From Planctomycetota bacterium (GTDB taxonomy: Bacteria > Planctomycetota > UBA1135 > UBA2386), in assembly GCA_965223545.1 (NCBI GenBank), contig OZ245006.1, forward strand, positions 5,344,001 through 5,408,000: a DNA stretch of 64,000 bases. Reading direction: 5' to 3'. Position 1 is the first letter of the stretch. Each line of letters begins with the position of its first letter. A model generated the notes under the pieces. It was not told the DNA's origin. It did no database searches and saw nothing but the letters and a program-made list of their open reading frames with translations. The translations under genes were made by a program, and so were the position numbers. Below are positions 7,101 through 54,286 of the stretch, piece by piece.

Positions 7101-7249
7101 CCACCGGTCGCTGGTCGGCAGTTCTGCCAATCCCCAACCTGGCGGTGCTGCACAGCGTCCCCGTCGTGGTGCAGGCCGCGTTCGGACCCAGCGCGGCCCC
7201 CCCGCGCGCCGACCTCACGCCGCCCGTCCTCCTCACCCTAGGCCGATAA
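4159..7249 (+). pseudogene. ELWxxDGT-repeat protein with a +1 frameshift in a C9 tract (4263-4271); phase-variable gene or sequencing error
   Basis: The signal peptide MTVSML...TLAAQ (ATG 4159) is in a different frame from the body (ORF 4382-7249). Removing one C gives QVPPRLLLDVNPTP...WAYFAANNSKVGTELYRTLG, matching the paralog QVAPRLLLDLNQSP...WVFFRAHNPLVGDELYRTLG. Confidence 0.85.
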
Positions 7250-7285
7250 ACTGAAGGTACGGAGCCAGGCTCCGTACCTTCAGTT
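7249..7285. repeat. Perfect 18-bp inverted repeat, REP-family variant; possible bidirectional terminator
   Basis: AACTGAAGGTACGGAGCC-A-GGCTCCGTACCTTCAGTT between convergent genes, overlapping both stop codons. Confidence 0.85.
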
Positions 7286-7966
7286 GCGTTGGATCTGGAC
7301 GAGGCGGATCTTGGTGTCGTTGCTGCATTCTTCGACGAGGCCGACGCCCGGGGCGTAGAGGATGATGTCGTCGTCCTCGGGGTCGTCCGGGTTCTCGTGC
7401 AGGCGTAGGCATCCGGAGAACGTGCCCGCCGGCGTGTTGGCCGTCACGTTGGTCGCCAGGATCACGAACTCTTCTGGCCCCGAGGCGCCCCAAGCGGCGA
7501 TGCGCGCGCCCGCGCGGGGAATGGCGGGCAGCACGGGCCATGGCAAGCCGCCGCCGATGCCCGCGATCCACCACTCGTTGCCCGTCGGTGTGCCGTTGCT
7601 TGCCAACTCGAGCGTCTCCTCCCCGTACTTCCACACCAAACCGCTCCGGTCCGGCGCGAACCACTCGACTGTGATCTCGCGCAGGGCGTTGTCGAGGAAG
7701 ATGCGCTGGACCAGGCCGACACAGGTCGTGCCCATGATCTCGCGGGGGTGGGGGTGGAGCTCCACCTCGTCGCGGCGGAACCGACCCGCATCGACGCCCT
7801 CGTACACCCGGGTCACGCCCAGCTCGAGTGGGAAGTAGGACGAGCTGGCCGTGGAGATCACTCCGCCGCTGCGGCTCGCGGCTTCTGGCTCAGAGGCGTG
7901 GTTGCAGCCGGTGGCGGCCAGCAGCGCGCCGAAAACGGCCAAGCGAGGGTTTTGTATCAGCATCAT
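7280..7966 (-). CDS. Conserved hypothetical lipoprotein
   Basis: AAGGAG RBS before ATG 7966; lipobox LAATGC; YFPL...EWFAPD..G.VWKYGE...YAPGVGLV pattern. Confidence 0.8.
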   Translation of the reverse strand: MMLIQNPRLAVFGALLAATGCNHASEPEAASRSGGVISTASSSYFPLELGVTRVYEGVDAGRFRRDEVELHPHPREIMGTTCVGLVQRIFLDNALREITVEWFAPDRSGLVWKYGEETLELASNGTPTGNEWWIAGIGGGLPWPVLPAIPRAGARIAAWGASGPEEFVILATNVTANTPAGTFSGCLRLHENPDDPEDDDIILYAPGVGLVEECSNDTKIRLVQIQRN

Positions 7967-9488
7967 GGTCTCCTTTGGAGCGCGTGGTGTGGTCCTCGAA
8001 CCGGGCGGCGGAAGAAGCGGGCGACGTGGGGCCGGTGAGGCGCACGACGAAGACGTCGTCCGCGCGTGACGTGAACTCGAGCTGCAACTGCAGGAGCCTG
8101 CACAGGGCTGCAACCAAAGCCAAGCCCAACCCGGCGTGCTCGCCCGGCGAACGCGCGGGATCCGCGCGCCAAAACGGCTCGGTGACCCGGTCTAGGTCGG
8201 CGCCGATGGCTTGCTCGCTGTGGTTGGTGATCTCCAGCCGAAAGCGACGCCCGCCGGCCGATTGGACGTGCGTGGCGGTGACGTGGACCACCGTTCCGGG
8301 GCGAGAGTGGCTGACCGCGTTGTGCAGCAGATTGGTGAGCACCAACTCGAGCTTGCCGCGATCGATGTAGAGCTGAAGATCCGCTGGCAGCTCTGCCGCG
8401 AACCTCAGCTCACGCCGCGTCGCCGCCTCCTCGAAACGCGACCAGACTGTGTGGATCATCGAAGGAAGCGCGACCGCATCGGCCTTGGTGTGCTCGACGC
8501 CGGCTTCGCAGCGAGCCAACAACATCAAGTCGCGGATGCAGCTCTCCATGCGGCTGGCGACCGCGCCGACGTCGCCGAAGTAGCCGACGACGGCGTCGCG
8601 GTCGTCTGGCCAGCGCCGCCCGACGGCGGCAAGGGACCGCAGCTCGGCGATCGGCGTGCGCAGCTCGTGGGCGACATTGCCCGAGAAGCGTCGTTCACGC
8701 TGAAACGCCGCCTCCAGCCGCTGCAACAGCTCATTGAGGCGCTCGGCCACCGGCGCGAGCTCGCGTGGCGCGGTGGTCGGGTCGAATCGGTGTGCCAGGT
8801 CGTGCGCGTCGATGTTCTCGACCTCGCGCGCGATCGACACCAGCGGCTTCAGGCCGCGGATCAGCGCCCAAGTCACGAAGGCGAAGCTGGCCAGCAACGT
8901 CAAAGCGACCATTCCCGCAATCGCGGCGCGTGTCGTGGTGAGCAGCGCGGCAAGCGATTCGCGGCCGCGCGCCAGCACCAGGACCAGCGCCCGCTCGGGG
9001 GCCGACGCCCCACTGGCTTCCACCGAGTCCTCGTCATCGCCGGGGTCGGGCGTCGAGTTCGGAAAGTACGCGAGCTGCGCCACTCGCCCGGCGCGACCGT
9101 CCGGCAGGACCGCGTCGACCCAGTGCATCGCGTCCAAGTCGCTCGGCCGGACCGGTAGGTCGACGTCCGCCGGGAGGCTGTTCGAACGCAGCAGCATCGA
9201 GCCGTCGTCGAGCCAGAACTGGAAGTACTCGCGCGGCGGTCCGCTGCCGTTGTCCTCGTCGAACTCCGGCATCGACCCCGGCACGTAGTCGAACTCGATC
9301 TGGCCGTTCTCTTGCTCGGTCAGCGAGGCGAGGGCGCGCAGCTTGGCACCCAGCGTCGCGTCGAACTCCGCGGCGAGATGGCGGCGCATCGCGCCGTCGA
9401 GGACGACACCACAGGCGCCCAGCAAGAGACCGATGCCGACGGTCAGGGAGACCTGCAGGCGACGGCGGATCGAGGCGGACGGCGTCAC
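7890..9488 (-). CDS. Membrane sensor histidine kinase (HAMP-HisKA-HATPase; CusS/QseC-like)
   Basis: Two TM segments, H-box FSGNVAHELRTP, N-box NLLHNA, FWRAD and GLGLAL motifs; start overlaps the regulator stop. Confidence 0.95.
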   Translation of the reverse strand: MTPSASIRRRLQVSLTVGIGLLLGACGVVLDGAMRRHLAAEFDATLGAKLRALASLTEQENGQIEFDYVPGSMPEFDEDNGSGPPREYFQFWLDDGSMLLRSNSLPADVDLPVRPSDLDAMHWVDAVLPDGRAGRVAQLAYFPNSTPDPGDDEDSVEASGASAPERALVLVLARGRESLAALLTTTRAAIAGMVALTLLASFAFVTWALIRGLKPLVSIAREVENIDAHDLAHRFDPTTAPRELAPVAERLNELLQRLEAAFQRERRFSGNVAHELRTPIAELRSLAAVGRRWPDDRDAVVGYFGDVGAVASRMESCIRDLMLLARCEAGVEHTKADAVALPSMIHTVWSRFEEAATRRELRFAAELPADLQLYIDRGKLELVLTNLLHNAVSHSRPGTVVHVTATHVQSAGGRRFRLEITNHSEQAIGADLDRVTEPFWRADPARSPGEHAGLGLALVAALCRLLQLQLEFTSRADDVFVVRLTGPTSPASSAARFEDHTTRSKGDHDADTKPSLGRFRRAAGRHRLQPRL

Positions 9489-10150
9489 GACACGGAGTAC
9501 CCCAGTCCGCGGTGCGTTCGGATCAGGTCGCGCGTGCCCGAGCCGTCCAGCTTCTTGCGCACCTGATGCACGAAGACCTCGACTGCGTTCTCCGTGCCAT
9601 GTCCCGCGCCTCCGTAGAGATGGTCGAGAAGCTCGGTCTTGGCCACGATGCGGCCGCGCCGCACCACCAAGTACTCCAGCACGGAGAACTCGTTGCGCGT
9701 CAACGCGATCTCCCGATCACCGTGATGCAGTGTGCGCCGTGCCGTGTCCATCGCCAGCGCCCCCACCCGCTGCACGGGGTTCTTGGTCGCGTACTTGCGG
9801 CGCACCAGTGCGCGCAGCCGAGCCACCAGCTCGCCGAAATCGAAGGGCTTGGTCAAGTAATCGTCGGCGCCGTGCTCGAGCCCCTCGATGCGTTCCTCCA
9901 CGCGCTCCTTCGCCGAGAGGATCAGCACGTGCTGTTGGATGCAGTGTCGGCGCAAAGCACGCAGGACACTCAACCCGTCGCGCTTGGGCAGCATCAGGTC
10001 GAGGACGATGGCGTCGTAGCACCCGTGCCGCGCGTACTCCAGGCCCTCCTCGCCGTCACCGACGACGTCCACTGCGAATCCCGATCGCTGCAGGCCGTGG
10101 GCAAGCGAGCGGCGCAGGCGTTCCGAGTCCTCGATGACCAGGATCTTCAT
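9485..10150 (-). CDS. OmpR/PhoB-family DNA-binding response regulator
   Basis: MKILVIED, LDLMLP, GADDYLTKPF, C-terminal winged helix ending IRTHRGLGY. Confidence 0.97.
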   Translation of the reverse strand: MKILVIEDSERLRRSLAHGLQRSGFAVDVVGDGEEGLEYARHGCYDAIVLDLMLPKRDGLSVLRALRRHCIQQHVLILSAKERVEERIEGLEHGADDYLTKPFDFGELVARLRALVRRKYATKNPVQRVGALAMDTARRTLHHGDREIALTRNEFSVLEYLVVRRGRIVAKTELLDHLYGGAGHGTENAVEVFVHQVRKKLDGSGTRDLIRTHRGLGYSVS

Positions 10151-10173
10151 CGATCGAAGGGTCCCACCCCAAT

Positions 10174-10189
10174 CTTAGGGAATCCTGAG
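10174..10189. promoter_or_regulatory. Candidate OmpR-family direct-repeat box (CTTAG-N6-CTGAG)
   Basis: 11-bp-spaced imperfect direct repeat resembling PmrA/QseB-type boxes, in the divergent intergenic region next to the regulator gene. Confidence 0.4.
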
Positions 10190-10258
10190 GAAGTCAGTTC
10201 GCCCGAGTAGGCCCTGACCCTCAGGGACGCCAAAGGAGCGTGCTCCAGGATGGCGCGA

Positions 10259-10275
10259 GTTCTGACAGTCAGAAC
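10259..10275. promoter_or_regulatory. Perfect palindrome GTTCTGAC-A-GTCAGAAC; possible operator or hairpin
   Basis: 8-bp arms with a 1-nt spacer, about 30 nt upstream of ATG 10305. Confidence 0.35.
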
Positions 10276-10304
10276 CCCGTGAACCCCAAACCAAGGAGCA
10301 AACG

Positions 10305-11045
10305 ATGATCGACATCAAGCGACTCTCCCCCTTCTTCCTGACTCCCCTGGCGCTGTCTTGGGCGTTCCCCGCGCCGGAGACGCGTGGCACCGAGGTCCCC
10401 CTGGCGGACGCGGCCGTGTTCATCGAGTTCAACTCGACCGACGGCGACTTCGGCATCCAGTTCTTCTGGGACGGTGACCCGTGGGATCGGATGACGGTCG
10501 TCGATCCCAGCGGGAAGAACGCGCTCAAGGTCAAGATCAACCATGGCCTCCAACGGCAGGGGCTGACCGAGGGGTTCTTCGAGAGCGCGGAGCCACCCAC
10601 CTCGGTGCTGTCGATGGCGCAGTTCCTGCAGCGATTCCCCGAGGGGGACTACGACTTCGCCGGCGCCACACTTACCGGCGAGCGGCTCGTCGGCGAGGCG
10701 GAGTTCACGCACGTCATGCCGGCGCCTCCCGCCAACCTGAGTCCCGGCGAGGGTGCCGCAGTGTCAGCGACGGCGCCGTTGGTGCTGTCGTTCGATGCGG
10801 TGATCGCCGACCTGAACGGTGCGCCGCTACAGCCGGAGTACTACGAGGTCATCCTGCAGAACGAGGACTCCGGCCGCACCATGACGGTCGAACTCGACGG
10901 CGACGTTGCCAGCCCGATGGTGATCGTGCCTCCGGGCTTCGTCAGCGCAGGCACGGAGTACAAGTTCGAGGTGATCGTGGAGGAGGAGAGCGGCAATCGG
11001 ACCATCTCCGAGGTCGCGTTCACAACCGCTGCGAGCTCACCGTGA
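10305..11045 (+). CDS. Conserved hypothetical secreted protein
   Basis: AAGGAG RBS, N-terminal signal, acidic EFNSTDGDFGIQFFWDGDPW...FFESAEP motif, beta-rich C-terminus. Confidence 0.8.
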   Translation: MIDIKRLSPFFLTPLALSWAFPAPETRGTEVPLADAAVFIEFNSTDGDFGIQFFWDGDPWDRMTVVDPSGKNALKVKINHGLQRQGLTEGFFESAEPPTSVLSMAQFLQRFPEGDYDFAGATLTGERLVGEAEFTHVMPAPPANLSPGEGAAVSATAPLVLSFDAVIADLNGAPLQPEYYEVILQNEDSGRTMTVELDGDVASPMVIVPPGFVSAGTEYKFEVIVEEESGNRTISEVAFTTAASSP

Positions 11046-11566
11046 CCGGAGGTGCCCGAGCCGTGGTCGCACTCGCGGTCGCAATGCTCGTCGTCGGGGG
11101 TCTGCAAGTCAGTGCTGGGGGCAGCGAAGACGTGCCTACCGCTGTCGCTGGGGCGGGTCTCGCGCGGGGCGCGCCGACCGGATGGACCCCATCGGGGAGC
11201 GTGCCGTCACCTGCGCCACGGCAGATCGTGACGCGTCGCTCGCAAAGGGCGGTAGTCGTGGATCTGCCGGCTGCCCTTGGACGGGTGGTGCACGTGCGCG
11301 GCGTCGCCCGCCGCGGGGGCCTTCCCGCGACCCTGACCGAGATCTGCTTAGTGCCCGCGGGGGACGGTGGCGATGGGCTCCAGCGGAGTGCCGACTGGGA
11401 CCTGACCGACGCGCAGGGGCAGTACGACGTGAGGCTGCGACCTGGAGACTACATCCTGTGTGCCGAAGGGTCGGTCGACCGGCGACTGGTGTCGATCGAC
11501 GTGCCCCTCGTGGGCTCAGCGGATGGTGTCAGCCAGGACATCGATCTCAGCGCGGGCCGGCAGTGA
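11042..11566 (+). CDS. Membrane-anchored protein with a carboxypeptidase-regulatory-like beta-sandwich
   Basis: GTG overlaps the upstream stop (GTGA); hydrophobic N-terminus; TDAQGQYDVRLRPGDY motif. Confidence 0.6.
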   Translation: MTGGARAVVALAVAMLVVGGLQVSAGGSEDVPTAVAGAGLARGAPTGWTPSGSVPSPAPRQIVTRRSQRAVVVDLPAALGRVVHVRGVARRGGLPATLTEICLVPAGDGGDGLQRSADWDLTDAQGQYDVRLRPGDYILCAEGSVDRRLVSIDVPLVGSADGVSQDIDLSAGRQ

Positions 11567-12394
11567 AAGCTCGACGAGCACCGGATGGTGGTCCGAAGGA
11601 AACCGGCCCTCGATGCGACCGTTGTCGATGATGGCCGAGTGCAGCGCGAACCCTTCGGTGCACAGGATGTGGTCGATGCGCTTGCTTCCCTGTGAGTCGA
11701 AGCCGTTGAAGGTGCCCTCGCCCGATCGGTCGGGGTGCACCTCGCCATAGCAGTCGCGGAAGCCGGCGGCCTCGAGCGCGCGCAGCGGCGGCGCGGTTTC
11801 TGTTGCGTTGAAGTCGCCGAGCAGGATCAACGGCAGGGCGCGCTGTTCCGTCCACCGCTGCAGCAGGCGCGCGCTCTCGAGCCGCGCCCGCTCACCGCGG
11901 TGGTCGAAATGAACGTTGGCGACGACCAGGCGTGCACCGGAGCGGCGGTCGCGCACGCGTGCCCACGTACAGATGCGGGTCAGCGCAGCGTCCCAGCCCA
12001 CTGCCCCCGGGACCTCCCGGTCCGGCGCCAGCCAAAACGTGCCGTGTTCTTCGACCTTGAGGCGGTCCTTGCGCACGAACAGAGTGCACGCCTCGCCACC
12101 ACCGTCGGCATCCCGGCCGCGGCCGTGCGCGACGAACTCCGGCAGCGCAGCCTGCAGCTCACTGGCTTGGAACGGCAGGACCTCTTGTGTGCCGAGGATG
12201 TCCGGCGCGTGCCCGCGAATGCTCGCGATCACTCGCGCCCCACGCATCTGCCAGTGATCCTCCCCGTCGGCGGCAGTGCCGTAGCGGATGTTGAACGTCA
12301 TCACCCGCAGCCGCTCGCCCTCCTGCGCACACCCCGCCAACGCCAACAGAACGTACGGAGTCAGGCTCGATTTTCTCGCTACCGCGTTCCTCAT
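11516..12394 (-). CDS. Endonuclease/exonuclease/phosphatase (EEP) family lipoprotein
   Basis: RVMTFNIRY, GTQE, NVHFDH, LLGDFNA, RIDHI and PSDHHPV motifs; lipobox LAGC. Confidence 0.92.
   Translation of the reverse strand: MRNAVARKSSLTPYVLLALAGCAQEGERLRVMTFNIRYGTAADGEDHWQMRGARVIASIRGHAPDILGTQEVLPFQASELQAALPEFVAHGRGRDADGGGEACTLFVRKDRLKVEEHGTFWLAPDREVPGAVGWDAALTRICTWARVRDRRSGARLVVANVHFDHRGERARLESARLLQRWTEQRALPLILLGDFNATETAPPLRALEAAGFRDCYGEVHPDRSGEGTFNGFDSQGSKRIDHILCTEGFALHSAIIDNGRIEGRFPSDHHPVLVELSLPARAEIDVLADTIR
12353..12380 (+). repeat. REP-like repeat copy inside the 5' end of the EEP gene
   Basis: GTACGGAGTCAGGCTCGATTTTCTCGCT, identical to 49973-50000. Confidence 0.9.
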
Positions 12395-12417
12395 GCTGCA
12401 TCCAACCCCGGCGCTGC

Positions 12418-14397: not shown

Positions 14398-14451
14398 GGG
14401 ACCTCCTCGAGGGTGGAGTGAGCTGCCGCCAACTTACACCCTGCGCGGCTG

Positions 14452-16149: not shown

Positions 16150-16173
16150 GGTTTCACTCTCCGTAGCGAACAA

Positions 16174-18657: not shown

Positions 18658-18813
18658 TTTGCGCGGCGTTGGATCTTGGCGGATGCACGGCGGCGTGCCA
18701 AACGCCGCTCTTGGCAGTGAACCCCCGAGCGGCGACGAGGCCGCAATGATTTTGCACGATGTTGTCGCGGTCCAACGGCACCTGCGTTGCACCGCAAAGG
18801 GAAGCCGCGCGGG

Positions 18814-20793: not shown

Positions 20794-20848
20794 GGCGAGG
20801 CGGCAGCGGGAATCGATGCGGGTGAACGGCAGCCATTATGCTGCCGGA

Positions 20849-23137: not shown

Positions 23138-23149
23138 TGCCGGCCAGCG

Positions 23150-24682: not shown

Positions 24683-24685
24683 GCG

Positions 24686-25696: not shown

Positions 25697-25710
25697 GGCG
25701 GTCGGCCAAG

Positions 25711-26601: not shown

Positions 26602-27320
26602 CCGTGGTCCTCGCGCTGGTCGAGGACGTGGCGGGTGAAGTAGTGGTGCTCGAAGTCCTGGCGCGGAATGATCGCGTCGCCGCGGCCGCCGGGCGTCAGG
26701 TCCAGCAGGTTCCACATCGGCCAGAAGGAGTCGACGTGCCGCGGGTGGCCGTTGTCCATCGGCCGGCGGAGCAGCTCGGATCCCCAAGTGTGGAACACGC
26801 CGTCTTCGGTCTTGGCGAAGACATTCATGATCGATGCCATCGCCGGGTCCTCGACTTCCGGGTGGCCGACGTAGTCGAGGATGTAGCTGCTGTCTCCCGC
26901 CGAGAACAACGGGATGGTCCAGCCACGGCGCTTTGCCCAAGCGGCCAGCTGCTCGGCGCCGGCGGCAGAGACCACCGCGATTGCCGAGTTTTGCTCGACG
27001 GCGTACCAGGCGACGTTCATCGCGTCGACGATCGAGGTGCACGATGGGCACGGCGCGTCCCACTTGGCGCCGAACATCATCGTGTACAGCAGCAACGTCT
27101 CGTGCTTGCCGAACAGGGTCGCGAACGGGACCTCGCGCACTGTCCCGCCATCGGACTGCTGGAACACGTAGTCATCGCCGAGCCGCCCGCCGAGCGGCAG
27201 CGCGCGGCGCTGTTCCGCCACGGCCTCGCCCTGCGCGCGGAGAGCCACCTCGCTGTCGAGCAGCGCGTCGCGTTGCGCGCGGTACTCGTCGGATTCGTTG
27301 GGGAAGCGGAACGCGGACAT
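26598..27320 (-). CDS. DUF899 family thioredoxin-like protein
   Basis: RRALP, CPSCTS, WNLLDLTPGGR motifs. Confidence 0.92.
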   Translation of the reverse strand: MSAFRFPNESDEYRAQRDALLDSEVALRAQGEAVAEQRRALPLGGRLGDDYVFQQSDGGTVREVPFATLFGKHETLLLYTMMFGAKWDAPCPSCTSIVDAMNVAWYAVEQNSAIAVVSAAGAEQLAAWAKRRGWTIPLFSAGDSSYILDYVGHPEVEDPAMASIMNVFAKTEDGVFHTWGSELLRRPMDNGHPRHVDSFWPMWNLLDLTPGGRGDAIIPRQDFEHHYFTRHVLDQREDHG

Positions 27321-34621: not shown

Positions 34622-34635
34622 GCGGCGCTGCTCGC

Positions 34636-35850: not shown

Positions 35851-35942
35851 CTCCCGAATCATAGCCGCACCCGCGCTGGAGCCGGTCGCAAGACGAACGA
35901 CGTCGCGGTCGGCCGCGGTTTTTGCGTATGTTCTGCGCGAGC

Positions 35943-44689: not shown

Positions 44690-44708
44690 ACGGCGGCCTT
44701 TTCGGTAA

Positions 44709-46991
44709 TCAGCGGATGTCGACGGTGAGGCCGCCGGTCATCTGGGCGCCGAACGGGTTCGAGCCGGGGCTGACGTACAGCCACTGCATGTAGATCGTGC
44801 CGCTGACGGTGGACGGGATCGTCAAGCGTTGGTTGTAGGACGACGTCGGCAAGACGACGTTCAGCGTGGTCATGGCCTGCGTCGGGTCGACCAGCAGCGG
44901 GCAGCCTGTCATCCCGATGAAGCTGAGGTCGAGGTTGGTCTGGGCGCCGCCGATGAGCAGGACACCGTTGACCCCGCTGGGCGCACCGGTGATGCGGGCG
45001 ATGAAGTTTCTCGTGCCCGCCCACGGGAGGTTCGCGTGGTTGTTGGTGGCGCTGCTGATCGAAGCATTGCCGCATCCGGTGCCATAGGGGGCCGGCAGGT
45101 TGATCGCCGGGTAGGCGAGCTTGGTCGCCGAGACGACCGCGGTCGAAGCGTAGGCGATCGAGTACTCGTGGTTGTCGTCGTCGTAGGTGATCGACGGGTG
45201 GGCCGCGCCCGAGGTCGGCGTAATGCTCGCCGACTCGGCGATCTTGCCGTCGACGCCGATCCGATCGACGTAGGAGACCAGCGGCTGCGCCAACGTCTCA
45301 CTGGTCACGCAGGCATAGTGGCTGCGGGTTTCCCGGTCGTGGGCGACTCCGCCGAGCAGCAGAGCGCGGCCCTGACGCAGGCGCTCGTGTGCCAGGGAGG
45401 TTGGCAATGACGACTGAACACCCCACTGGAGCACCTGCACCCACGCTTCGGAGCCGGTGTTGCCGATCTGGGGAAACAGGTTGGCACGCTGCAGGTAGGC
45501 GATGCTGTAGTTGTCGAGACTGCCGGCAATGCGAGGCGCAAAGCTGTGCATCGCGTTGGCGAGATTGCCGAGCGAGACGTAGGAGTTCGAGCTGCCGTTC
45601 TGGTCGACGCGCGTCGCGAACACGTCCCAATCGTCCTGCGGGATGATCGTGTCGAGGCTCTGGAAGACGCACACCCAGTCGTCGCCCGAGGACTCGCGCT
45701 GCTCGTTGATGTCGGGGCGGTCGGTGTCCTTCAGCACGCTGGTGCTACTCACCGAGTAGTGTCGGATTGCACGGCCGGCGCGAACGTCGACCACGGTGGC
45801 GCGGATCGACGAGTTGTTGGTGTCGGGTTGACCGCTGTCGGAGCGGTAGACGACCAGGGCTTCGTCGCCGGCGAACCGGTTCGAGCAGCCGCCCACCGCG
45901 ATGTGGTGCGCCCAGTCGGTCGAGCGCAGCGCGACGATGCTGGTGCTGACCGAGAAGTTGCCGGCGTCGTGCAAATGGGCCCTGAGGTAGCCGATGTTGC
46001 TGGAGGGCACCAGGCGGTTGAAACCGATGACCCACCGCTGCGGTGCGGCGACGTAGGCCACGTCCATGCTGTCCGTGCTCCAGGACGCGGTGATGTCGGT
46101 GAACACCGGCGCGGACGGCGAGAAGTCGTCGTCCATCAAGTAGGCGTAGCCGTCGTAGTCGGCGCTGGAGACCGCGCGGGTGAAGACGATCATCAGCTGG
46201 CCGGTCTCGGCATCGCGCCCGATTTCGGTGTCGGCGGGGGTTGCGCCACCGGCGGAGATCGAGCGAGCGCTGAGCAGCGGATCGACGGTCAGCGGGAACT
46301 GGGCGTCGCGCACGGCGTCCGCGGCGAGCCGCAGCTCGACCTCGCCGGCGACGATCGTCGTGGTCATCGCCGTCTGGCGGCCGGCCGCGTCGATCGCGAT
46401 CGCCGCGCCGTAGCGGACACGCTCGCGGCCCGTAGCGTCGCGCAGCGCGAGCGCGCCGGAGCGCGGGGTCGCGGAGTCGATGTCGAGCTCACTGATCAGC
46501 TGGCCACGCACGACGAGATCTCCTCGCACCGAGCTTCCTTCCACGGCGGGCCGCTGCGCGATGACGAAGGTCTGCTCGACACCGTCGCGCCGCACGTCGT
46601 AGGCCTCCGTGAAGCCGGGATAGCGGTACTCGTAGCGCCAATCCTGAGCGTGCCCGCGCATCGCCTTCGCGGCGTCCGACGTCATCAGCTGGTGCCCGCC
46701 GATCGAGACGCCGGTGGTCCGCCAGCGCACCGGCAGGTTGCGCGGCGCGTCGGCACCGAGCACCGGGTAGAACACCATCCCGTCGTGGAACGACACCTTG
46801 TAGTCGGGGCCGGCGGCCCAAGTCCCGTAATCGGCAACGGCCTCGTCGGCACCGGTGTGCACGGCCACCATCCAGCGCGCGGCATCGATCGCCTGGACTT
46901 GCTCCAGGGTCGGTGAAGGGTTCTGGGCAGCCGGCGGGGCGATCGAGACGCTGCCAAGCACCATGAGCGAGATCAGGCGGTTTCGTTCCAT
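44709..46991 (-). CDS. Large secreted protein with conserved C-terminal domain
   Basis: GAGGTG RBS before ATG 46991; signal ending PAAQ; YDVRRDGVEQTF...FPLTVDP module; YGTGC...QW C-terminal domain. Confidence 0.85.
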   Translation of the reverse strand: MERNRLISLMVLGSVSIAPPAAQNPSPTLEQVQAIDAARWMVAVHTGADEAVADYGTWAAGPDYKVSFHDGMVFYPVLGADAPRNLPVRWRTTGVSIGGHQLMTSDAAKAMRGHAQDWRYEYRYPGFTEAYDVRRDGVEQTFVIAQRPAVEGSSVRGDLVVRGQLISELDIDSATPRSGALALRDATGRERVRYGAAIAIDAAGRQTAMTTTIVAGEVELRLAADAVRDAQFPLTVDPLLSARSISAGGATPADTEIGRDAETGQLMIVFTRAVSSADYDGYAYLMDDDFSPSAPVFTDITASWSTDSMDVAYVAAPQRWVIGFNRLVPSSNIGYLRAHLHDAGNFSVSTSIVALRSTDWAHHIAVGGCSNRFAGDEALVVYRSDSGQPDTNNSSIRATVVDVRAGRAIRHYSVSSTSVLKDTDRPDINEQRESSGDDWVCVFQSLDTIIPQDDWDVFATRVDQNGSSNSYVSLGNLANAMHSFAPRIAGSLDNYSIAYLQRANLFPQIGNTGSEAWVQVLQWGVQSSLPTSLAHERLRQGRALLLGGVAHDRETRSHYACVTSETLAQPLVSYVDRIGVDGKIAESASITPTSGAAHPSITYDDDNHEYSIAYASTAVVSATKLAYPAINLPAPYGTGCGNASISSATNNHANLPWAGTRNFIARITGAPSGVNGVLLIGGAQTNLDLSFIGMTGCPLLVDPTQAMTTLNVVLPTSSYNQRLTIPSTVSGTIYMQWLYVSPGSNPFGAQMTGGLTVDIR

Positions 46992-47144
46992 CGTGGTCAC
47001 CTCGTGTTTCGGGTGACCTGATGCGTCAGGAGGGGGCGACGGCGGCCAACATTCGGGTTTCAGCAACTCGAGGGAGTACGTCGTGCCCTGAGCAGGCCGC
47101 GTCTTGCGGTCTCGACTCCGTCGGTGGACGCTTGGGGGTTCACC

Positions 47145-47639
47145 ATGGCCGATTCCGAACCCGTCCCTCCCGAGCGCGAAGACTCGGACCCACGAGACTC
47201 CGACCGCACGCGTCAATGGTGCGATGACATGCGGTGCCACGTCGCGGGCTACCTCGACGCGGAGCGGGTGCGCCACGGCCAGGTCGGCGACCGGCCGGTG
47301 TTTCAGGTCGCCCCCTACGTCTCGGTTTGGGAGGTCGAGAGCGCGGCCCGGCCGGGGAATGTCGGTGGCTGGGTGGTCTGCGGCGATCTGCCGACCGACT
47401 GCGTGTGCGCCGAAGAGGTGGCGCACCCGCGCGCGGCGTTGGCGGCGATCGCCGAGCGGTGGAGGCGCTACGCGGAGGCGGTGCGGCGGGGCGAGCCGCC
47501 GGAGGGGTTCGAGATCGCCGGCGTCGCCGACGATCCCGACAACCTGTTGCCGCAGCTGGAGAGCCGGGCGGAGACGTTGGCGCAGTGGGCGGAGGACGAC
47601 GGGGCCTGGAGCGACGAGGCTTCGGATCAGCAGAGCTGA
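47145..47639 (+). CDS. DUF4826 family protein
   Basis: APYVSVW, GWVVCGDLPTD, PRAALAAIA motifs. Confidence 0.8.
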   Translation: MADSEPVPPEREDSDPRDSDRTRQWCDDMRCHVAGYLDAERVRHGQVGDRPVFQVAPYVSVWEVESAARPGNVGGWVVCGDLPTDCVCAEEVAHPRAALAAIAERWRRYAEAVRRGEPPEGFEIAGVADDPDNLLPQLESRAETLAQWAEDDGAWSDEASDQQS

Positions 47640-47643
47640 CGCC

Positions 47644-48561
47644 TCAGGCTTCGGCCAGCGCCGCGCCGACGCGCAGCTTCATCGAGTGCAGCGTGTTGCG
47701 CATCAGCATGGCGATCGTCATGGGGCCGACACCGCCGGGCACCGGGGTGATCCAGCCGGCGATCTCCGCCGCTTTGTCGTAGTCGACATCGCCGCGCAGG
47801 ATGGCGACGGTCTTGCCGGTCTTCTCGCTGACGCGCTCGCCGACGCGGTTGACGCCGACGTCGATGACGCACGCCCCGGGCTTGATCCACTCCGGCTGCA
47901 CCAAGCCGGGCACGCCGGCGGCGACGATCAGGATGTCGGCGCGGCGGCAGTGGGCGGCGAGGTCGCGGGTGCGCGTGTGCACGACGGTGACCGTCGAATT
48001 GGCGCCCGCGCCCTTCTGCATCATCATCGTCGCGATGGGCTTGCCGACGATGTTCGAGCGGCCGACGACGACGACTTCGGCTCCGCTGGTCTCGATGCCC
48101 GCGCGTAGGATCATCTCGCGGATGCCGGCGGGCGTACACGGCGGGAAGCGTACGTCGTCGCCGATCAGTAGTCGGCCCGCGTTGACCGGGTGAAACCCGT
48201 CGACGTCCTTGTCGGGATCGATCGCCAACAGGACCTTGTTCTCGTCGATGTGGTCCGGGAGCGGCAGCTGCACCAAGATGCCGTCGATACTCGGGTCGTC
48301 GTTGTAGCGCTGGATCAGCGCCAGCAGCGCTGCTTCGTCGATGTCGGCCGGTTGGTTGTCCTGGACTTCGTGAAAGCCGATGCCGATCGCGGTCTGCACC
48401 TTGAGGCGCACATACGATTGGGATGCCGGGTTGTCGCCGACGAGAATCGTGACCAGGCCGGGCGGACGGCCGTGCTGGGCGGCGAGTTGGTCGACCTCGG
48501 TCTTGATCTCGTCGAGGATCGTCTGGCGCAGCGCCGTTCCGGAGATGATCTGTGCGGGCAT
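47644..48561 (-). CDS. folD: Methylenetetrahydrofolate dehydrogenase/cyclohydrolase
   Basis: YVRLK, GILVQLPLP, KDVDGFHP, PCTP, GRSNIVGKP, ITPVPGGVGPMT. Confidence 0.98.
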   Translation of the reverse strand: MPAQIISGTALRQTILDEIKTEVDQLAAQHGRPPGLVTILVGDNPASQSYVRLKVQTAIGIGFHEVQDNQPADIDEAALLALIQRYNDDPSIDGILVQLPLPDHIDENKVLLAIDPDKDVDGFHPVNAGRLLIGDDVRFPPCTPAGIREMILRAGIETSGAEVVVVGRSNIVGKPIATMMMQKGAGANSTVTVVHTRTRDLAAHCRRADILIVAAGVPGLVQPEWIKPGACVIDVGVNRVGERVSEKTGKTVAILRGDVDYDKAAEIAGWITPVPGGVGPMTIAMLMRNTLHSMKLRVGAALAEA

Positions 48562-48635
48562 GAGAAAAGCGTGGTCGGCGGAAGGACCAAACCCTAGCAG
48601 GTTGGCAAGCGGTGGCCAGCGTTCGTACGGTGTCG

Positions 48636-49967
48636 GTGTTGAACGCGGTTCGCCCATCCCCGTCGTCTTCGAGTCTCTGGGTGCTCGTCGTGCTCGGTGC
48701 CGGCTGGCGCGTCGGCGTCGCGGCGCGGACACCGGTGCCGGCGGAGGACGGCGCCAACTACCTCTGGATGGCCGAGCAGCTGGCGCGGGGCGCGCCGTGC
48801 GCGACCCTGGACGCGGTGTTTCCGCCGCTCAACAGCATGGTCTGTGCGGTCGGCGTCGCCCTGCTGCCGTGGCTGGAGCCGTTCCGCGCCGCGCAGCTGG
48901 TGTTGGCAGTGGTCGGCGCGCTGGCGGCCGTGCCGCTGGCCCGCTTGGTCGAGCGCGTCGCGCCCGGCGGTGGGTGGGCGGCGGCCTGGTTGATGGTCAC
49001 CGCGCCGCTGCCGATTCGCTGTGCCGCCGAGATCTACAGTGAGCCGGCCTACCTGCTGTGCGCGTCGATGGCGCTCCACGCGTGGGTGCGCGGCGCGTCG
49101 GGCGCCGCCGGCGCCTGGCTCGGGGCAGCGTCCTGGGCGCGGCCCGAGGCGTTGGTGTTGGCGGGAGCGTTGGCGCTCGCCGCGCCGCGGAAGGCTTGGC
49201 GGATGCTGTGGCCCGTCGCGGTCGCCGCCGCCGTGCTCTCCGCGGCGCGCGCGTTGTGTGGGCACGGGCCGGATCCGATGCCGAAAGCCGGGTTTGTCTG
49301 GGAGCGCACCATCGGGGTGGCGCCGGGGATCGGCGACATGGTCGCCGCGTTCGGCCGGCACGCGCTGCAGATGCCGTGGCTGTGGGTCGAGGCGTTCGCG
49401 ATCTCGGGCGTGCTGGCGGTGTTGGGGGTGTGGCGCGGCGCACTCGCGCACCGGCGCGCGTTCTTGGCAGCGGCCGTGCTGGGGTGTGCGCTGATCTGCG
49501 CGTTCTTGCCGCGCCGGCGCTTCCTCGTCACCTGGCTGCCGGTGGTCCTGCCACTCGCGGTCGCCGGCTTGGGCGCGCTGCCCGCGCGATGCCGCTCCTT
49601 CGTGCTGGCCGCGGCCGTGCTGCTCAACGTCGCGCTCTCGGTGCGCGTCATCGACGCCGACCGGGTCGCCGAGCGCCGCGTCGGCGCCTGGCTCGCGACC
49701 CAGTGTGCGCCCGGCGAGCGGATCACCGGCGACATGACCCGCGTGCTCTACTTCGCCGGCGAACGCCCGCTTCCCCCCAAGCCGTTCACCGCCGAACAGC
49801 TGGCCGACCGCGCCCACGCCGTCCGAGCCCGCTTCGTCGTCCTCGGCGCGCGCCGCCCGACGACCCCCGAAGCTCGGCGCCTCCTCGGCGACTACCGCCC
49901 GCTCCGCCTCCCCCCAGAGCTCGCCGAGCTCGCCCACCGCCGCGGCATCCTCACACTCCACCGCTAG
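48636..49967 (+). CDS. Polytopic membrane protein, GT-C fold glycosyltransferase-like
   Basis: Many TM segments; EDGANY, FPPL, SEP and RPEA motifs. Start uncertain (48612 or 48636). Confidence 0.7.
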   Translation: MLNAVRPSPSSSSLWVLVVLGAGWRVGVAARTPVPAEDGANYLWMAEQLARGAPCATLDAVFPPLNSMVCAVGVALLPWLEPFRAAQLVLAVVGALAAVPLARLVERVAPGGGWAAAWLMVTAPLPIRCAAEIYSEPAYLLCASMALHAWVRGASGAAGAWLGAASWARPEALVLAGALALAAPRKAWRMLWPVAVAAAVLSAARALCGHGPDPMPKAGFVWERTIGVAPGIGDMVAAFGRHALQMPWLWVEAFAISGVLAVLGVWRGALAHRRAFLAAAVLGCALICAFLPRRRFLVTWLPVVLPLAVAGLGALPARCRSFVLAAAVLLNVALSVRVIDADRVAERRVGAWLATQCAPGERITGDMTRVLYFAGERPLPPKPFTAEQLADRAHAVRARFVVLGARRPTTPEARRLLGDYRPLRLPPELAELAHRRGILTLHR

Positions 49968-49968
49968 C

Positions 49969-50050
49969 GAAAGTACGGAGTCAGGCTCGATTTTCTCGCT
50001 TCGCCGACGTGCCGGCGAAGCGAGAAAATCGAGCCTGACTCCGTACTTTC
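49969..50050. repeat. REPIN-like perfect 38-bp inverted repeat with 6-nt loop
   Basis: 49969-50006 is the exact reverse complement of 50013-50050 (loop ACGTGC); lies between convergent genes. Confidence 0.93.
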
Positions 50051-51137
50051 AGATGAGGAAGTGGCAGATGTCGCCGTCTTGCAGGACGTAGTCCTTGCCC
50101 TCGACGCGCAGCTTGCCGGCGGCCTTGATCGCCGCTTCGCTGCGGTGCTCCATCAGATCGTCGAACTGATAGACCTCGGCGCGGATGTAGCGTTTGACGA
50201 AGTCGGTGTGGATGACGCCGGCGCCGACCGGACCGGTGTCGCCCTTGCGGATGACCCAGGCGCGGACTTCCTTCTCGCCGGCGGTGAAGAAGGTCTGCAG
50301 GCCGAGGAGGTCGAAGCCCTTGTGGATCAGTTGGCCGAGCCCCGATTCGGTGAAGCCCAGCTCCTCCATGAACATCGCCCGTTCGTCGCCGTCCATGCGC
50401 ACCAGCTCGGCCTCGATGTCGCCGCACAGGGGCAGCACCTCGCTGCCCGAGCGCGCGGCGTATTCGCGCAATGCAGCGACGTGCGTGCCCTCACCGGCGA
50501 CATCGTCGTCACCGACGTTGGCGACGAACAGCATCGGCTTGACCGTCATCAAGAACAGCGGTTGCAGCGCCTTGAGCTCGAGTGCGCTCCAGGCGTGCGT
50601 GCGCAGGGGTTGATCGGTCTGCAGGTGGTCACGGGCCTTCTCGAACAGCTCTTTCTCCCGCTGGCAGTCCTTGTCGCCGGCGCGCGCCTTCTTCGCCACG
50701 CGCTCGATGTTGCGCTCGAGGGTGGCGAGGTCGGCTTGGCTCAGCTCGAGGTCTACGACCTCGGCGTCGATCGCCGGATCGAGATCGCCGGTGACGTGCT
50801 GCACGCCGCTTTTTTGGAAACAGCGGACGACGTGCAACAGCACGTCCGCCTCTTTGATCGCGCCGAGAAACGAGATGCCCATGCCTTCGCCCTGGCTCGA
50901 GCCCGACACCAGTCCGGGGATGTCGACCACGGTCATCTGCGCCGGCACGATTCGCTGCGTGGGGATGCACTCGGCGATCTTCGCCAGCCGCGGGTCCGGC
51001 ACGTCGACGGTGCCCTGCACCGGACCGGTGGTGCTGAACATGTAGTCCGAACGCTCCACCTCTTGTTGGGTGATGGCGCCGAAGATCGTGGTCTTGCCGA
51101 CGTTGGGCAGGCCGACGATGCCGCATGAAAGGCCCAT
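50049..51137 (-). CDS. ychF: Ribosome-binding ATPase YchF
   Basis: MGLSCGIVGLPNVGK, DIPGLV, TFFTAGEKEVRAW, GVIHTDF, EGKDYVLQDGD. Confidence 0.97.
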   Translation of the reverse strand: MGLSCGIVGLPNVGKTTIFGAITQQEVERSDYMFSTTGPVQGTVDVPDPRLAKIAECIPTQRIVPAQMTVVDIPGLVSGSSQGEGMGISFLGAIKEADVLLHVVRCFQKSGVQHVTGDLDPAIDAEVVDLELSQADLATLERNIERVAKKARAGDKDCQREKELFEKARDHLQTDQPLRTHAWSALELKALQPLFLMTVKPMLFVANVGDDDVAGEGTHVAALREYAARSGSEVLPLCGDIEAELVRMDGDERAMFMEELGFTESGLGQLIHKGFDLLGLQTFFTAGEKEVRAWVIRKGDTGPVGAGVIHTDFVKRYIRAEVYQFDDLMEHRSEAAIKAAGKLRVEGKDYVLQDGDICHFLI

Positions 51138-51148
51138 GGCGGCGCAGG

Positions 51149-52393
51149 CTACCGCCGGGTCGCGGCCCGCGACAGAGCTAGTGGCGGCCCTCCGCGGTCT
51201 CGCCACGCGCGCCACACGCTGAGCGCCCACAGCAGCACGGTGCCCGCGGTGACGAGGTAGAGGCTCTGCTGCAGCTCTTTGAGGTCGCGGCCGAGGACGT
51301 CTCCGCCGAGCAATAGCACGAGCGCGTAGCCACCGAGCACCCACAGCAGCCCCGGCCGGCCGTTTACGCCAGCGCAGAGCAAGGCGAAGAACGCGGGGAT
51401 CAGCGCGACGTGGTGGGCCTTCCACGAGATCGGCGACAGCAGCAGCGACAGCGCGCAGGTCGCCGCCGTCAGCCAGACCGCGTGGCGCGGCTTGCGCAGG
51501 GCGACCGACGCGGTGGCGACCAGGACTGCCGCGGCTAGTGCGCGCGCGACCCAGCTCACGACCTCGGCTGGCAGGCCGAGCCCCGGAACGAAGCCGGGCA
51601 CGAGCGCTGCGTGCGCGGCGGGCACGGTCCCGAGATAGCGCGCGACTGCGCAGCGCAGGCACTGGTTCATCCACGAGAACGCCGGAAACCCGTGCTCGGG
51701 CGCGGCGAAGACGTCGGTGGTCGCGGCGTAGGCCAGCGTGCCGGCCAGCCAGCGCTGCAGCGGCGCCGTGCTGCCGAGCAGCGCGGTCGCCAGCGCGGTC
51801 AGCGCCACCGCGCAGCCGAGCGCGCCGGCGGCGGCGCGCCGGTGGCCGAGCAACCACAACAGGGGGACGAAGAGCAGGCCCGTGGGTTTGGTCGCCAGCG
51901 ACAGCCCCAGTGCCGCCGCGGCGCCGGCGCTGCGGCCCTGATCGGCCCAGCGCAGCGCGGTCAGCCAGAGGGCCAAGTTGACGAGGTTGCCGCCGCCGCC
52001 ATGGGTGTCGCGCAGCACGTAACGCGCGCTCAGCACGGCCGTGCCCAACAACAGCCAGTGGAGGCGCGGGCGCAGCGGTGGTGCCAGCCGTTCGAGGGCG
52101 TCGCGCGCCCACAGGCCGATGGCCCACAGCGCGAGCACCTGCAGCATGCCCCACGCGACCCGCGCGCCCCGCTCGGGCAGCAGGGAGAACGGCGCGGTCA
52201 GCAGGCCGAAACCGGGCGGGTAGACCGGGTGCAGCGGTTTGGCTTCCAGATAGGGGGCGTAGAGCTCCTCGCCGTGCAGCACGCGCTGGCCGAACTCGAG
52301 GTGATCGGTGATGACCCCCCGGTCACGGATTCCGGTGCGCGCGACCAGTGCCACGGCCAGCGCGAGCCACAGCCAGAGCCAGGCGCGCCGCAT
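51149..52393 (-). CDS. GT87/DUF2029 family membrane glycosyltransferase
   Basis: VYPP, G..NL, ATKP, NQCL and LSPISWKAH motifs; polytopic. Confidence 0.85.
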   Translation of the reverse strand: MRRAWLWLWLALAVALVARTGIRDRGVITDHLEFGQRVLHGEELYAPYLEAKPLHPVYPPGFGLLTAPFSLLPERGARVAWGMLQVLALWAIGLWARDALERLAPPLRPRLHWLLLGTAVLSARYVLRDTHGGGGNLVNLALWLTALRWADQGRSAGAAAALGLSLATKPTGLLFVPLLWLLGHRRAAAGALGCAVALTALATALLGSTAPLQRWLAGTLAYAATTDVFAAPEHGFPAFSWMNQCLRCAVARYLGTVPAAHAALVPGFVPGLGLPAEVVSWVARALAAAVLVATASVALRKPRHAVWLTAATCALSLLLSPISWKAHHVALIPAFFALLCAGVNGRPGLLWVLGGYALVLLLGGDVLGRDLKELQQSLYLVTAGTVLLWALSVWRAWRDRGGPPLALSRAATRR

Positions 52394-52401
52394 GCGCCCG
52401 G

Positions 52402-52614
52402 CTACTCGTCGAACAGCTCGCGGTAGGCCGGTCGGGATTCGGCCGCGCTGCTGGGCTCCAAGCGGTAGGTCGTCGGGCCGCGCTTGGCGAGCTCGTGTCC
52501 GTCGGCGCCCTCACCGAAATCGATCACCAGCTCCTCCGGCACCTCGCCGTGGGGAGACAACAAGATGCAGGGCTGGTCCACACCCTCCAGGCGAACGACC
52601 CGGGCTCGAAGCAT
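52402..52614 (-). CDS. Small hypothetical protein (70 aa)
   Basis: ATG 52614; ends 8 nt before the GT87 start; non-shadow amino acid composition. Confidence 0.55.
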   Translation of the reverse strand: MLRARVVRLEGVDQPCILLSPHGEVPEELVIDFGEGADGHELAKRGPTTYRLEPSSAAESRPAYRELFDE

Positions 52615-52725
52615 GACCCCATTGTGCCCGGAGGGCGGGCAATCTTCGAGTGGGGAGCTCGGTCGGTCGGCGGCGGCCGACAAAGGGAGCTGGCGGTTGC
52701 TCCGGGTCCCGCGTAGAGAGCGGTG

Positions 52726-54255
52726 ATGAGATCGCGCCGCCCCCCGTTGCGTGTCGCTGCCGCCCTGGTCGGTTGTCTGTCTTTCGGCGCCGGTCTCGGC
52801 GCGCAGGCCGGGGCCGCCCGGCCCGCGGAACCCGTCGAGAAGCCGGCGGGTTCGGGCCAGTGGAGCCAGTTCCGCGGCCCCGGTGGGCAGGGGGTCGCGG
52901 TCGGCGACCGGCGGCCGCCGGTCGAGTTCGGTCGGGACCGCGGCATGCGCTTTCGCGTCGAGGTCAGCCCTGGCAACTCCTCACCGTGTGTGTGGGGCGA
53001 TCGGGTGTTCCTCACCGGCGCCCGCGACCGGCAGCTGGAGACGGTGTGCTTGGACGCCGCCACCGGCGCCGAGCGCTGGCGGCGCAGTGTCGAGGTCGAG
53101 GTGCTCGAGAAGGGCCACCGCATCAACAGCGCGGCGTCACCGACGCCGGCTGCCGACGGCGCGCGCGTCGTCGTCTACTTCGGTTCGTTCGGCCTGCTGT
53201 GCTACGACCACGATGGCGAGGAGGTCTGGCGCCGGCCGCTCCCGGCGGCGGCCAACACGTTCGGCACGGCGGCATCGCCGGTGATCGACGGCGAGCACGT
53301 GATCTTGGTCCGCGACACCAACGAGGCCTCGTGGGTCGAGGTGATGCGCGCGACCGACGGCGAGACCTTGTGGCGGGTCGACCGCAGTGGGTTCCCGTCG
53401 GCATGGTCGACGCCGGTGGTGTGGCGCCGCGGTGATGCTGTCGAGCTGTTGGTCTACGGAGCGTTTCGGCTGACTGCTTACGACTTGGCGACCGGCGACG
53501 AGCGCTGGTCGGTGCCCGGTCTGGCCGACGAGCCGTGCATCACGCCGGCGCTGGGCGAAGAACTGGTGTACGTCACGTCGTACAACATGCGCACCAACCC
53601 GGAAGTCGTCGGGTTGCCATCCTTCGAGACCCTGCTCGCCGAGTACGACGACGACGGCAATGGCACGCTGAGCCGCCGCGAGGTCGGACCCAACCGCAGC
53701 ATCCTGTCGCGCATGGACGCCGATGGTGAGGGCGATCACCCCTTGCGCGGCTTCTTCCGCTTCTTGGATCGCGATGCAGACGGCCAGCTGTCCGCGGCCG
53801 AGTGGCAGCGCATGTTCGATTGGCTCTCGACCTTCGAGCACCGCAACGCCGTGGTCGCGATCCGGCCGCCCGACGCCGCCGGTGGGGAGGTCGCGATCGC
53901 GTGGCAGTTCGGGCGCGGAATCCCCGAGTGCCCCTCGCCGCTCGTGCACGAGGGCAAGGTCTACCTGGTCAAGAACGGCGGCATGGTCAGCTGCCTCGAC
54001 GCGGCGACCGGCGCTCTGCACTACCAGGGCCGGCTCGGCGCAGGCGGACCGCGTTACTCCTCCCCGGTGGTCGGCGGCGGCCGCATCTACGCCGCCTCCG
54101 CGCGCGGCGTGATCACGGTGTTTGCCGCGGGCGACACCCTCGACGTCCTGGCACACAACGACCTCGGCGAGCGCATCATGGCCACCCCCGCCCTCGTCGA
54201 CGGCGTGATCTACGTACGCACCGAAGCCGCCCTCTACGCCTTCGCCGAGCCCTAG
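52726..54255 (+). CDS. PQQ-like (BamB-type) beta-propeller protein with EF-hand insertion
   Basis: WSQFRGP, SSP, LDAATG..RW repeats; DDDGNGTLS and DRDADGQLSAAE loops; ATPA...IYVRT end. Confidence 0.9.
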   Translation: MRSRRPPLRVAAALVGCLSFGAGLGAQAGAARPAEPVEKPAGSGQWSQFRGPGGQGVAVGDRRPPVEFGRDRGMRFRVEVSPGNSSPCVWGDRVFLTGARDRQLETVCLDAATGAERWRRSVEVEVLEKGHRINSAASPTPAADGARVVVYFGSFGLLCYDHDGEEVWRRPLPAAANTFGTAASPVIDGEHVILVRDTNEASWVEVMRATDGETLWRVDRSGFPSAWSTPVVWRRGDAVELLVYGAFRLTAYDLATGDERWSVPGLADEPCITPALGEELVYVTSYNMRTNPEVVGLPSFETLLAEYDDDGNGTLSRREVGPNRSILSRMDADGEGDHPLRGFFRFLDRDADGQLSAAEWQRMFDWLSTFEHRNAVVAIRPPDAAGGEVAIAWQFGRGIPECPSPLVHEGKVYLVKNGGMVSCLDAATGALHYQGRLGAGGPRYSSPVVGGGRIYAASARGVITVFAAGDTLDVLAHNDLGERIMATPALVDGVIYVRTEAALYAFAEP

Positions 54256-54260
54256 CGAGA

Positions 54261-54286
54261 GTACGGAGTCCGGCTCGATTTTCTCG
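54261..54286 (+). repeat. REP-like repeat, single copy
   Basis: GTACGGAGTCCGGCTCGATTTTCTCG (1 mismatch to consensus), 5 nt after a TAG stop, between convergent genes. Confidence 0.88.

Follow-up and report, generated by a model that had tools for sequence, protein, structure and literature searches.

What kind of element is the short repeat that recurs beside gene ends in this 64,000-nucleotide stretch of a Planctomycetota genome (hereafter the window; C1:5344001-5408000 of genome G000, 8.1 Mb, 70% GC)? An initial annotation, made from the letters of the window, described a 26-mer built of a GTAC tetramer and a small imperfect palindrome, and took it for a family of repetitive extragenic palindromes (REPs) and their inverted doublets (REPINs), mobilised in trans by a REP-associated tyrosine transposase (RAYT). 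We find a real and large family of terminal inverted repeats (TIRs) that acts like a REP/REPIN population; it is of the TIRtron/TIRYT class (subclass 2.1, RAYT Group 1) and not of the classical GTAG REPtron class. The repeats are probably gene-less copies of the inverted ends of two TIRYT-type Y1 transposase units, likely spread on single-stranded DNA (ssDNA); that they were mobilised in trans we infer. We did not find their mirrored flanks and the rewritten ends of neighbouring genes described in the literature searched, and these flanks, together with the positions of the stop codons, are likely a clue to the mode of insertion.

Genome-wide census of the repeat

In the window the 26-mer is present at 12353 (+), 49973 (+), 50021-50046 (-) and, with one mismatch, at 54261 (+), exactly as first reported, and 100 shuffles gave 0 matches. 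Counting it genome-wide, a check named beforehand, yields 29 exact copies and 118 with at most 3 mismatches. A degenerate census retrieves 222 intact copies, namely 125 of type A (the 26-mer), 82 of type B (core GGAGCCAGGCTCC with a different tail) and 15 of a symmetric type P, some symmetric copies being counted as B through the census priority rule. With 23 further B/P copies that are split by an IS110 element the total comes to about 245. They form 183 loci (148 singles, 33 pairs and 2 groups of four), and contig C2 carries zero copies. The exact 17-mer is nearly exclusive to this genome, with 0-6 copies across 40 relatives.

The layout is common to all types. A loosely conserved motif comes first, followed by GTAC, by a palindrome of 13 nt with an odd centre, and by a tail that ends in a rough complement of the first motif. 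The annotated unit of GTAC plus a small palindrome is therefore present, but the repeat also takes in a loosely conserved stretch of about 5-6 nt before the GTAC, which differs between the families. GTAC occurs in 99-100% of the copies in the census, so the canonical GT[AG]G tetranucleotide of REPs is absent; a GTAC foot as such is not new, being listed in the PMC6006769 supplement for REPs of subclass 2.4 (three rows).

Some loci are composite. Type A copies stand directly outside type B doublets at C1:769809-769933, 4840777 and 7651720, and a type A tandem array with a 44-bp period occupies C1:6605846-6606004. Several unrelated 18-mers also occur 40-60 times in this genome.

Two transposase genes bracketed by the repeats

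The window itself holds no transposase of this kind, and a Y1 gene flanked by inverted copies was looked for in the whole genome. A Y1_Tnp profile search gave 14 matches, two of which are long proteins; both genes lie outside the window and both are flanked in this way. Inverted type A copies at 1729787 and 1730915 enclose gene A (C1:1729868 onward), and gene B (3914532-3915533) is bracketed by inverted type B copies, each of them split by IS110. Each subfamily thus brackets its own Y1 gene. The two proteins are 45% identical to each other, and each is single-copy. The remaining 12 matches form a separate family of similar copies (C1:1355010 and 11 other places; signature DH[LF]H / YVLQNA), which we rejected as the cognate enzyme, a repeat copy lying within 900 bp of only 1/12.

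In proteins A and B a THFH motif is followed, at a spacing of 59 residues, by YIDHNP, and the tail is helical. Residues H60, H62, Y119, N123 and S140 are invariant in 43 sequences and correspond to the HuH, Y---NP and Ser motifs of subclass 2.1, and the His-to-Tyr spacing of 59 falls within the subclass range of 58-67. A model of protein B (pLDDT 88) has E. coli TnpA-REP (4ER8) as its best fold match, with helices at 267-311. The family profile matches four DnaA domain IV chains weakly (E 0.013-0.05), and the C-terminal helix-turn-helix (HTH) matches Sigma70_r4_2 with an E of 2e-4, below the cut-off. On motifs and domain layout, the enzymes are assigned to the TIRYTs of subclass 2.1 / RAYT Group 1.

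This changes part of what was first proposed. The dispersed family, its enrichment at convergent gene ends, the inverted doublets and the flanked Y1 gene all hold up; the enzyme, in contrast, is a subclass 2.1 TIRYT with a C-terminal HTH. A classical REP-associated RAYT of Group 2/3 does not fit, given these features and scores of 56.5 and 63.5 bits against the NCBIfam RAYT model NF047646, whose cut-off is 80.

In the available text of PMC6006769, subclass 2.1.2 is equated with the TIRYTs of PMC3733652. Our enzymes resemble this subclass, which corresponds to RAYT Group 1 (PMC5581495), as described in the parts accessible to us: THFH/YIDHNP, a His-to-Tyr spacing of 59, a Ser after the core, a C-terminal DnaA-domain-IV-like HTH, low copy number and divergent paralogues. 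They differ from the accessible description of subclass 2.1.2 in a length of ~333 aa (against a median of 238) and in the large cognate dispersed family of each gene; that source gives subclass 2.1 genes no REP-like sequences alongside, although two supplement rows for one gene exist. With the TIRtrons in the available text of PMC3733652 the family shares a Y1 gene with flanking inverted repeats, GGGGWSAS-related ends, and an arrangement in singles, dimers and clusters. Unlike them it reaches ~245 copies, where the repeats there are 'moderately abundant', its TAC-tagged motif is typical of this Planctomycetota clade, and its mirrored outer flanks, clipped gene ends and targeting by IS110 are not seen in that text.

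The targeting element is a 460-aa DEDD/Transposase_20 IS110 present in 23 copies, all at the centre of a B/P palindrome, with a repeated CAG core at the insertions. IS621 is an IS110 element that targets REPs. The preference for a palindrome centre is shared with such elements (ISPpu9, for instance, in the descriptions available), the difference being that the target here is a TIR-type repeat. The composite at unit B (C1:3912820-3917193) has IS110 copies at both ends around an intact gene. The pair C1:7651720/7653495, considered as a candidate REPtron, was discarded because it encloses an IS110.

It might be argued that the repeat is simply the end of an ordinary insertion sequence (IS) or of a miniature inverted-repeat transposable element of the DDE type, or of the IS110. 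After all, the repeats literally are a gene's terminal inverted repeats, and 23 copies adjoin an IS110. We regard this as very improbable: the sequence forms the ends of a Y1 unit, the bracketed genes are single-copy HUH/Y1 genes, direct target duplications are lacking (see below), and the IS110 interrupts the palindrome, one half of which lies on either side of it, in B/P cores in 23/23 cases and never in A.

Survey of related genomes

Full-length homologues of the transposases come mostly from Planctomycetota records, in line with a host that likely belongs to this phylum. Among 70 homologous loci examined, many have inverted repeats around the gene, with about one quarter at chance-level scores only. 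In the Planctomycetota clade these ends begin RTAC-SGWGYC, and those of more distant homologues begin with the exact sequence GGGGTCAG, which fits the published TIR motif GGGGWSAS. According to the available text of PMC3733652 this motif holds for most, not all, published TIRs; at the corresponding place, type A (GGAGTCAG) departs from it at 1/8 positions and type B (GGAGCCAG) at 2/8. Across orthologous ends TAC is conserved and the first base is free (ATAC or GTAC), so that GTAC cannot be upheld as a conserved tetramer. These ends conserve sequence (TAC-SGWGYC) more than structure.

A 15-nt motif built from the orthologous ends was then counted in 150 relatives of the class, most of them incomplete genomes, the motif being clade-derived. 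At least 10 copies are found in 31 of the 58 genomes with the gene, against 4 of the 92 without it, and at least 50 copies in 10/58 against 0/92. Counts go up to 259 per genome, and reversed-pattern controls gave 0-7. The contrast is a large one; the association of gene and motif copies holds across the 150 relatives, and judged from these counts the phenomenon is class-wide, with a repeat sequence that is genome-specific in each case.

Doublets and mirrored flanks

As proposed in the initial annotation, copies form inverted doublets: 27 adjacent inverted pairs have GTAC facing outward. Most are near-perfect palindromes with loops of 0-6 nt. Different loci share the inner arms, which makes it likely that a doublet moves as a whole. 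The longest direct target duplication in these 27 doublets is 0 bp in 26 cases and 2 bp in one. The outer flanks carry a locus-specific inverted copy of 0-20 bp, which we call the mirror. Its mean length is 5.6 bp in 14 type A doublets (against 1.6 bp in cross-locus pairs) and 8.0 bp in 12 type B doublets (against 1.3 bp), and it is present in 23 of these 26, the nested A-B-B-A locus C1:769809 having been left out. In the relative G055, 10 doublets average 13.2 bp (against 7.9 bp in cross-locus pairs) and 9 singlet loci also lie in locus-specific inverted flanks (10.2 against 7.0, p=1e-4), these 19 loci having been picked among the matches listed, of 92. None of 50,000 permutations reaches the observed mean in A, B or G055. 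Type P singlets of G000 show a marginal mirror (p=0.03, 10 loci). In some doublets (e.g. C1:6675428 and 7722994) the mirrored stretch takes in the stop codons of both convergent genes. Clustered type A copies are nearer the consensus than singlets (0.6 against 2.0 mismatches).

Two origins of the mirror have to be weighed. It could be made at insertion, by fold-back copying of the flank as set out below, or it could arise later in the same elements, spread by the same enzymes, when a host polymerase switches template at the hairpin. Near-perfect palindromes are good substrates for template switching. Most doublets are of this kind, with mostly 0-6 nt loops, and a mirror that varies from 0 to 20 bp and has no fixed junction sequence agrees with such switching. 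The mirror is found, on the other hand, in 23/26 doublets including those nearest the consensus, which suggests formation at or soon after birth, and the inverted flanks of the G055 singlets speak against switching as well. Host template switching explains the mirror about as well as fold-back copying and is the main rival, a serious contender towards which we nonetheless do not lean. If it is true, the mirror says nothing about the transposase.

Doublets are also where the family comes closest to the REP/REPIN systems of RAYT Groups 2/3. In the available text on these systems (PMC3116915, PMC3333891, PMC8266576, 10.1101/2021.07.10.451892) we find likewise a short palindrome with a tetramer at its foot, tail-to-tail hairpin doublets, doublets closer to the consensus than singlets (here in type A), an intergenic bias and an IS110 parasite. 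The differences are GTAC in place of GT[AG]G, a weak or absent hairpin in type A, a Group 1 enzyme, and singlets at 148/183 loci, against 61% of REPs in doublets in SBW25. With 27 inverted pairs, most copies are not in inverted doublets as those of a REP family would be. In the accessible text of 10.1101/2021.07.10.451892, only Groups 2 and 3 have REPINs.

Position at gene ends

Gene context was taken from our own hexamer gene caller (5,856 genes), which limits the counts of gap types given here. Intergenic positions hold 203/222 copies. The enrichment at convergent gene ends, predicted from the window, is borne out: copies occupy 81/464 convergent gaps, 68/2,204 tandem and 18/996 divergent ones, an odds ratio of 7.7 for convergent against all other gaps (81/464 against 86/3200). 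In 98/222 copies GTAC lies -1 to 8 nt from a stop codon, against 79/28,133 of other GTAC sites. The stop varies with the distance: at distance 2 it is TGA in 31/31 cases, at distance 0 TAA in 9/10, and at distance 5 TAA or TAG in 16/17, against 24% genome-wide (TGA ends 76% of genes). Of 22 genes that abut a copy directly, 8 end in the codon CGA, which is the last codon of 3-4% of genes genome-wide; the upstream motif can take the form CGA-TA.

Orthologues suggest that the host stops beside copies are partly not native. YchF (named by Pfam; the other gene names are our reading of the sequences) is 2 residues shorter than in 21/21 relatives read, dihydrolipoamide dehydrogenase is shorter than in 4/4 and a SEC-C-motif protein than in 2/2, and UvrC is C-terminally shorter than in 4/4. 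XerD (4/4), MetF (4/5) and glutamate dehydrogenase (2/2) end at the native position. Loci that did not match the motif search (2/23 ychF, 1/5 uvrC, 1/5 xerD) were left unread. The relatives compared belong to other genera, so the shortening in 4/7 genes may be lineage-specific. Most simply, copies would insert at a gene end or just ahead of it, and would last where a stop is retained or provided.

Unit A lies between xerD and uvrC, and the first G of the bracketing type A copies completes the TAG of both neighbours; in 3/5 relatives xerD and uvrC are convergent and <40 bp apart, and in a fourth they are adjacent in tandem. The tandem paralogues at C1:3710979 and 3712028, whose DNA is 97% identical up to the stops, carry a B and an A copy at the same 5-nt offset, by either A/B type conversion or repeated use of one site. 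Comparing paralogues for empty sites was informative on gene ends, not on exact junctions. In the relative G009 the metF stop is followed by a related TAC-type repeat, at the offset that the type B copy has in G000.

The position at gene ends might also reflect a host function, as terminator or mRNA 3' stabiliser, by which copies are selected. Such selection would fit the odds ratio of 7.7 and the very stable hairpins of doublets and P copies. Convergent gaps hold no promoters, however, so that the same enrichment would be expected under neutral tolerance. Orientation is unbiased in tandem gaps (GTAC faces the gene end in 41 and away from it in 40), a terminator scan of window positions 45000-57000 found no terminator-like site at the repeat copies, A singlets are unfolded, and some neighbours are apparently C-terminally clipped. 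We judge a host function to be quite unlikely as the cause.

Folding of the repeat unit

Shuffled sequences fold as well as type A does (mean z over 90 singlets: +0.15 for RNA, -0.27 for DNA), and the type A stem tolerates mismatches, G-G in 93/125 copies and T-T in 25/125. B and P do fold (mean DNA z -2.5 and -6.7). A stable hairpin is thus a property of B/P and not of type A, and the simple tetramer-plus-hairpin reading of the unit is weakened by the type A stem mismatches and lack of fold. Both features agree with an end that is recognised in part by its sequence, which an HTH would make possible.

The view behind the initial annotation was that of a classical REP/REPIN family with GTAC for GTAG, in which folded ssDNA alone is read, so that the HTH would be idle. 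The folding of B/P units, GTAC at the palindrome foot in nearly all copies, tail-to-tail doublets, an IS110 at the palindrome centre as known for REPs, and a GA bias at positions -4/-3 that fits a guide model are all in keeping with it. Type A, the larger subfamily, is unfolded and stem-mismatched, however, the enzymes score under the 80-bit RAYT cut-off and have subclass 2.1 features, and orthologous ends keep sequence over structure. On these grounds a classical REP family seems unlikely.

Proposed mechanism of spread

Returning to the reading we prefer, gene-less copies of TIRYT-type ends, we propose the following course. The Y1 core would nick and rejoin DNA via a phosphotyrosine, and the C-terminal HTH would read the conserved end sequence. 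A tail-to-tail doublet would be excised or copied as a unit, and one end joined at GA or GT near a gene end; the other junction would be finished by fold-back copying of the flank, giving the mirror. Insertions would land on or just before gene ends, and the survivors would be those that keep or supply an in-frame stop. The most tentative step is that TAC may serve as an IS608-type guide choosing GA/GT cut sites, which would make TGA stops preferred targets. The G at position -4 in 82/82 B and 15/15 P copies (with A at -3 in 77% of B) and the conserved TAC with its free first base would fit such a guide.

Published biochemistry offers a parallel. In the available text of PMC3333891 and PMC8266576, the E. 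coli and Group 3 enzymes cleave ssDNA at dinucleotides at a variable distance, form a phosphotyrosine intermediate and carry out strand transfer. A Group 3 REP with GTAG changed to GTAC redirects cleavage to GA and GT (PMC8266576). Our literature search, with subscription papers largely outside it, found no biochemical study of subclass 2.1 / TIRYT and no account of mirrored flanks in TIR/REP repeats. We put forward, as a possibility that is doubtful in its full extent, that Group 1 (TIRYT) HUH-HTH enzymes drive REPIN-sized repeat populations across the class: a TAC guide would aim the cut at GA/GT, often in a TGA stop, the second junction would be made by fold-back copying, an inverted target footprint would be left, and host C-termini would be rewritten.

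Several observations weigh against these readings, besides the limited gene context. Singlets make up 148/183 loci, and type A and B singlets of G000 show no locus-specific mirror (p=0.93 and p=0.14). The excess of G at mirror junctions (11/13, null 0.63) is post hoc and not significant (p=0.09). Empty sites, looked for in close strains, were not found, the strain contigs showing the same filled alleles or unrelated sequence; contigs from 7 of the 13 sequencing runs listed, for two stretches, gave no credible joint removing a copy. The frame of gene A (C1:1729868-1733095) passes its right inverted end without meeting a stop and continues, over 1,075 codons, into uvrC in antisense, and short-read contigs have the same letters; as the ends of unit B are moreover split by IS110, present activity is doubtful. 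Among the 58 genomes with the gene, 27 have <10 motif copies, and the significance of the survey is overstated, its motif having been drawn from the orthologous ends and related genomes not being independent of one another. In G055 the gene is flanked by a repeat different from that genome's abundant 92-copy motif family. Finally, 3/7 tested host genes keep their native stop.

Two side observations concern these orthologues. Long open frames are also present at two orthologues (G045 and G103), and at G055:C1:4711900-4713500 the orthologous gene has full hairpin doublets of the different repeat on either side.

Group 1/subclass 2.1 is the largest RAYT-like group and, in the texts available, is said to lack REPs or REPINs. 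Two enzymes in one genome, each with its own large repeat family, provide a built-in specificity control. Any model of insertion has to account for the mirrored flank, a concrete footprint whose presence in classical REPINs can be checked by computation alone. The TIRtron class itself is known, so the value of the family lies in a testable mechanism and not in a new system.

Copies within the window

All four stop-codon contexts cited in the initial annotation were found in the sequence. The inverted type A doublet (49969..50050; units 49973-49998 (+) and 50021-50046 (-)) has 34-bp perfect arms, a 6-nt loop, a 4-bp mirrored outer flank and a fold z of -16, and no direct target duplication. On its left, the convergent host gene 48681..49967 (+) has its TAG 5 nt outside the GTAC; on its right, ychF (50049..51137, -) has its TGA 2 nt outside the GTAC. 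A type A singlet with a 5-nt upstream motif (54256..54287, +; unit 54261-54286, 1 mismatch) lies directly 3' of the TAG of the beta-propeller gene 52747-54255, and a convergent gene ends at 54302.

The palindrome at 7257-7277 had been listed as a short variant of the 26-mer. It is present, but as the core of a type P copy (7249..7285), a symmetric member of the sister subfamily B/P, which has a transposase and an IS110 parasite of its own. The arms of this copy are perfect over 18 bp, its core is bordered on either side by 8 bp of mirrored flank, its fold z is -10, and two stop codons enclose it; the gene ending at 7280, a lipoprotein-like open reading frame, was missed by the hexamer gene caller. 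An Rfam search of the window gave no family reaching its gathering score.

Placement between convergent genes applies to the other loci of the window and not to the type A singlet 12353..12379 (+). Its reverse strand contributes, in frame, to the likely signal peptide of the host gene 11516..12394 (-), which encodes a PF03372 endonuclease/exonuclease/phosphatase with a lipobox-like N-terminus. From the ATG at 12394 (-) a lipoprotein-type signal peptide is predicted that is partly encoded by the repeat, and its spacing to the catalytic domain is about as in homologues. As read from these features, the copy is likely inside the gene and not intergenic. Read in reverse, type A codes for a run of basic residues that could act as the n-region of a signal peptide, and a second candidate of this kind is the copy at C1:5014160, with an upstream in-frame ATG and a hydrophobic stretch.

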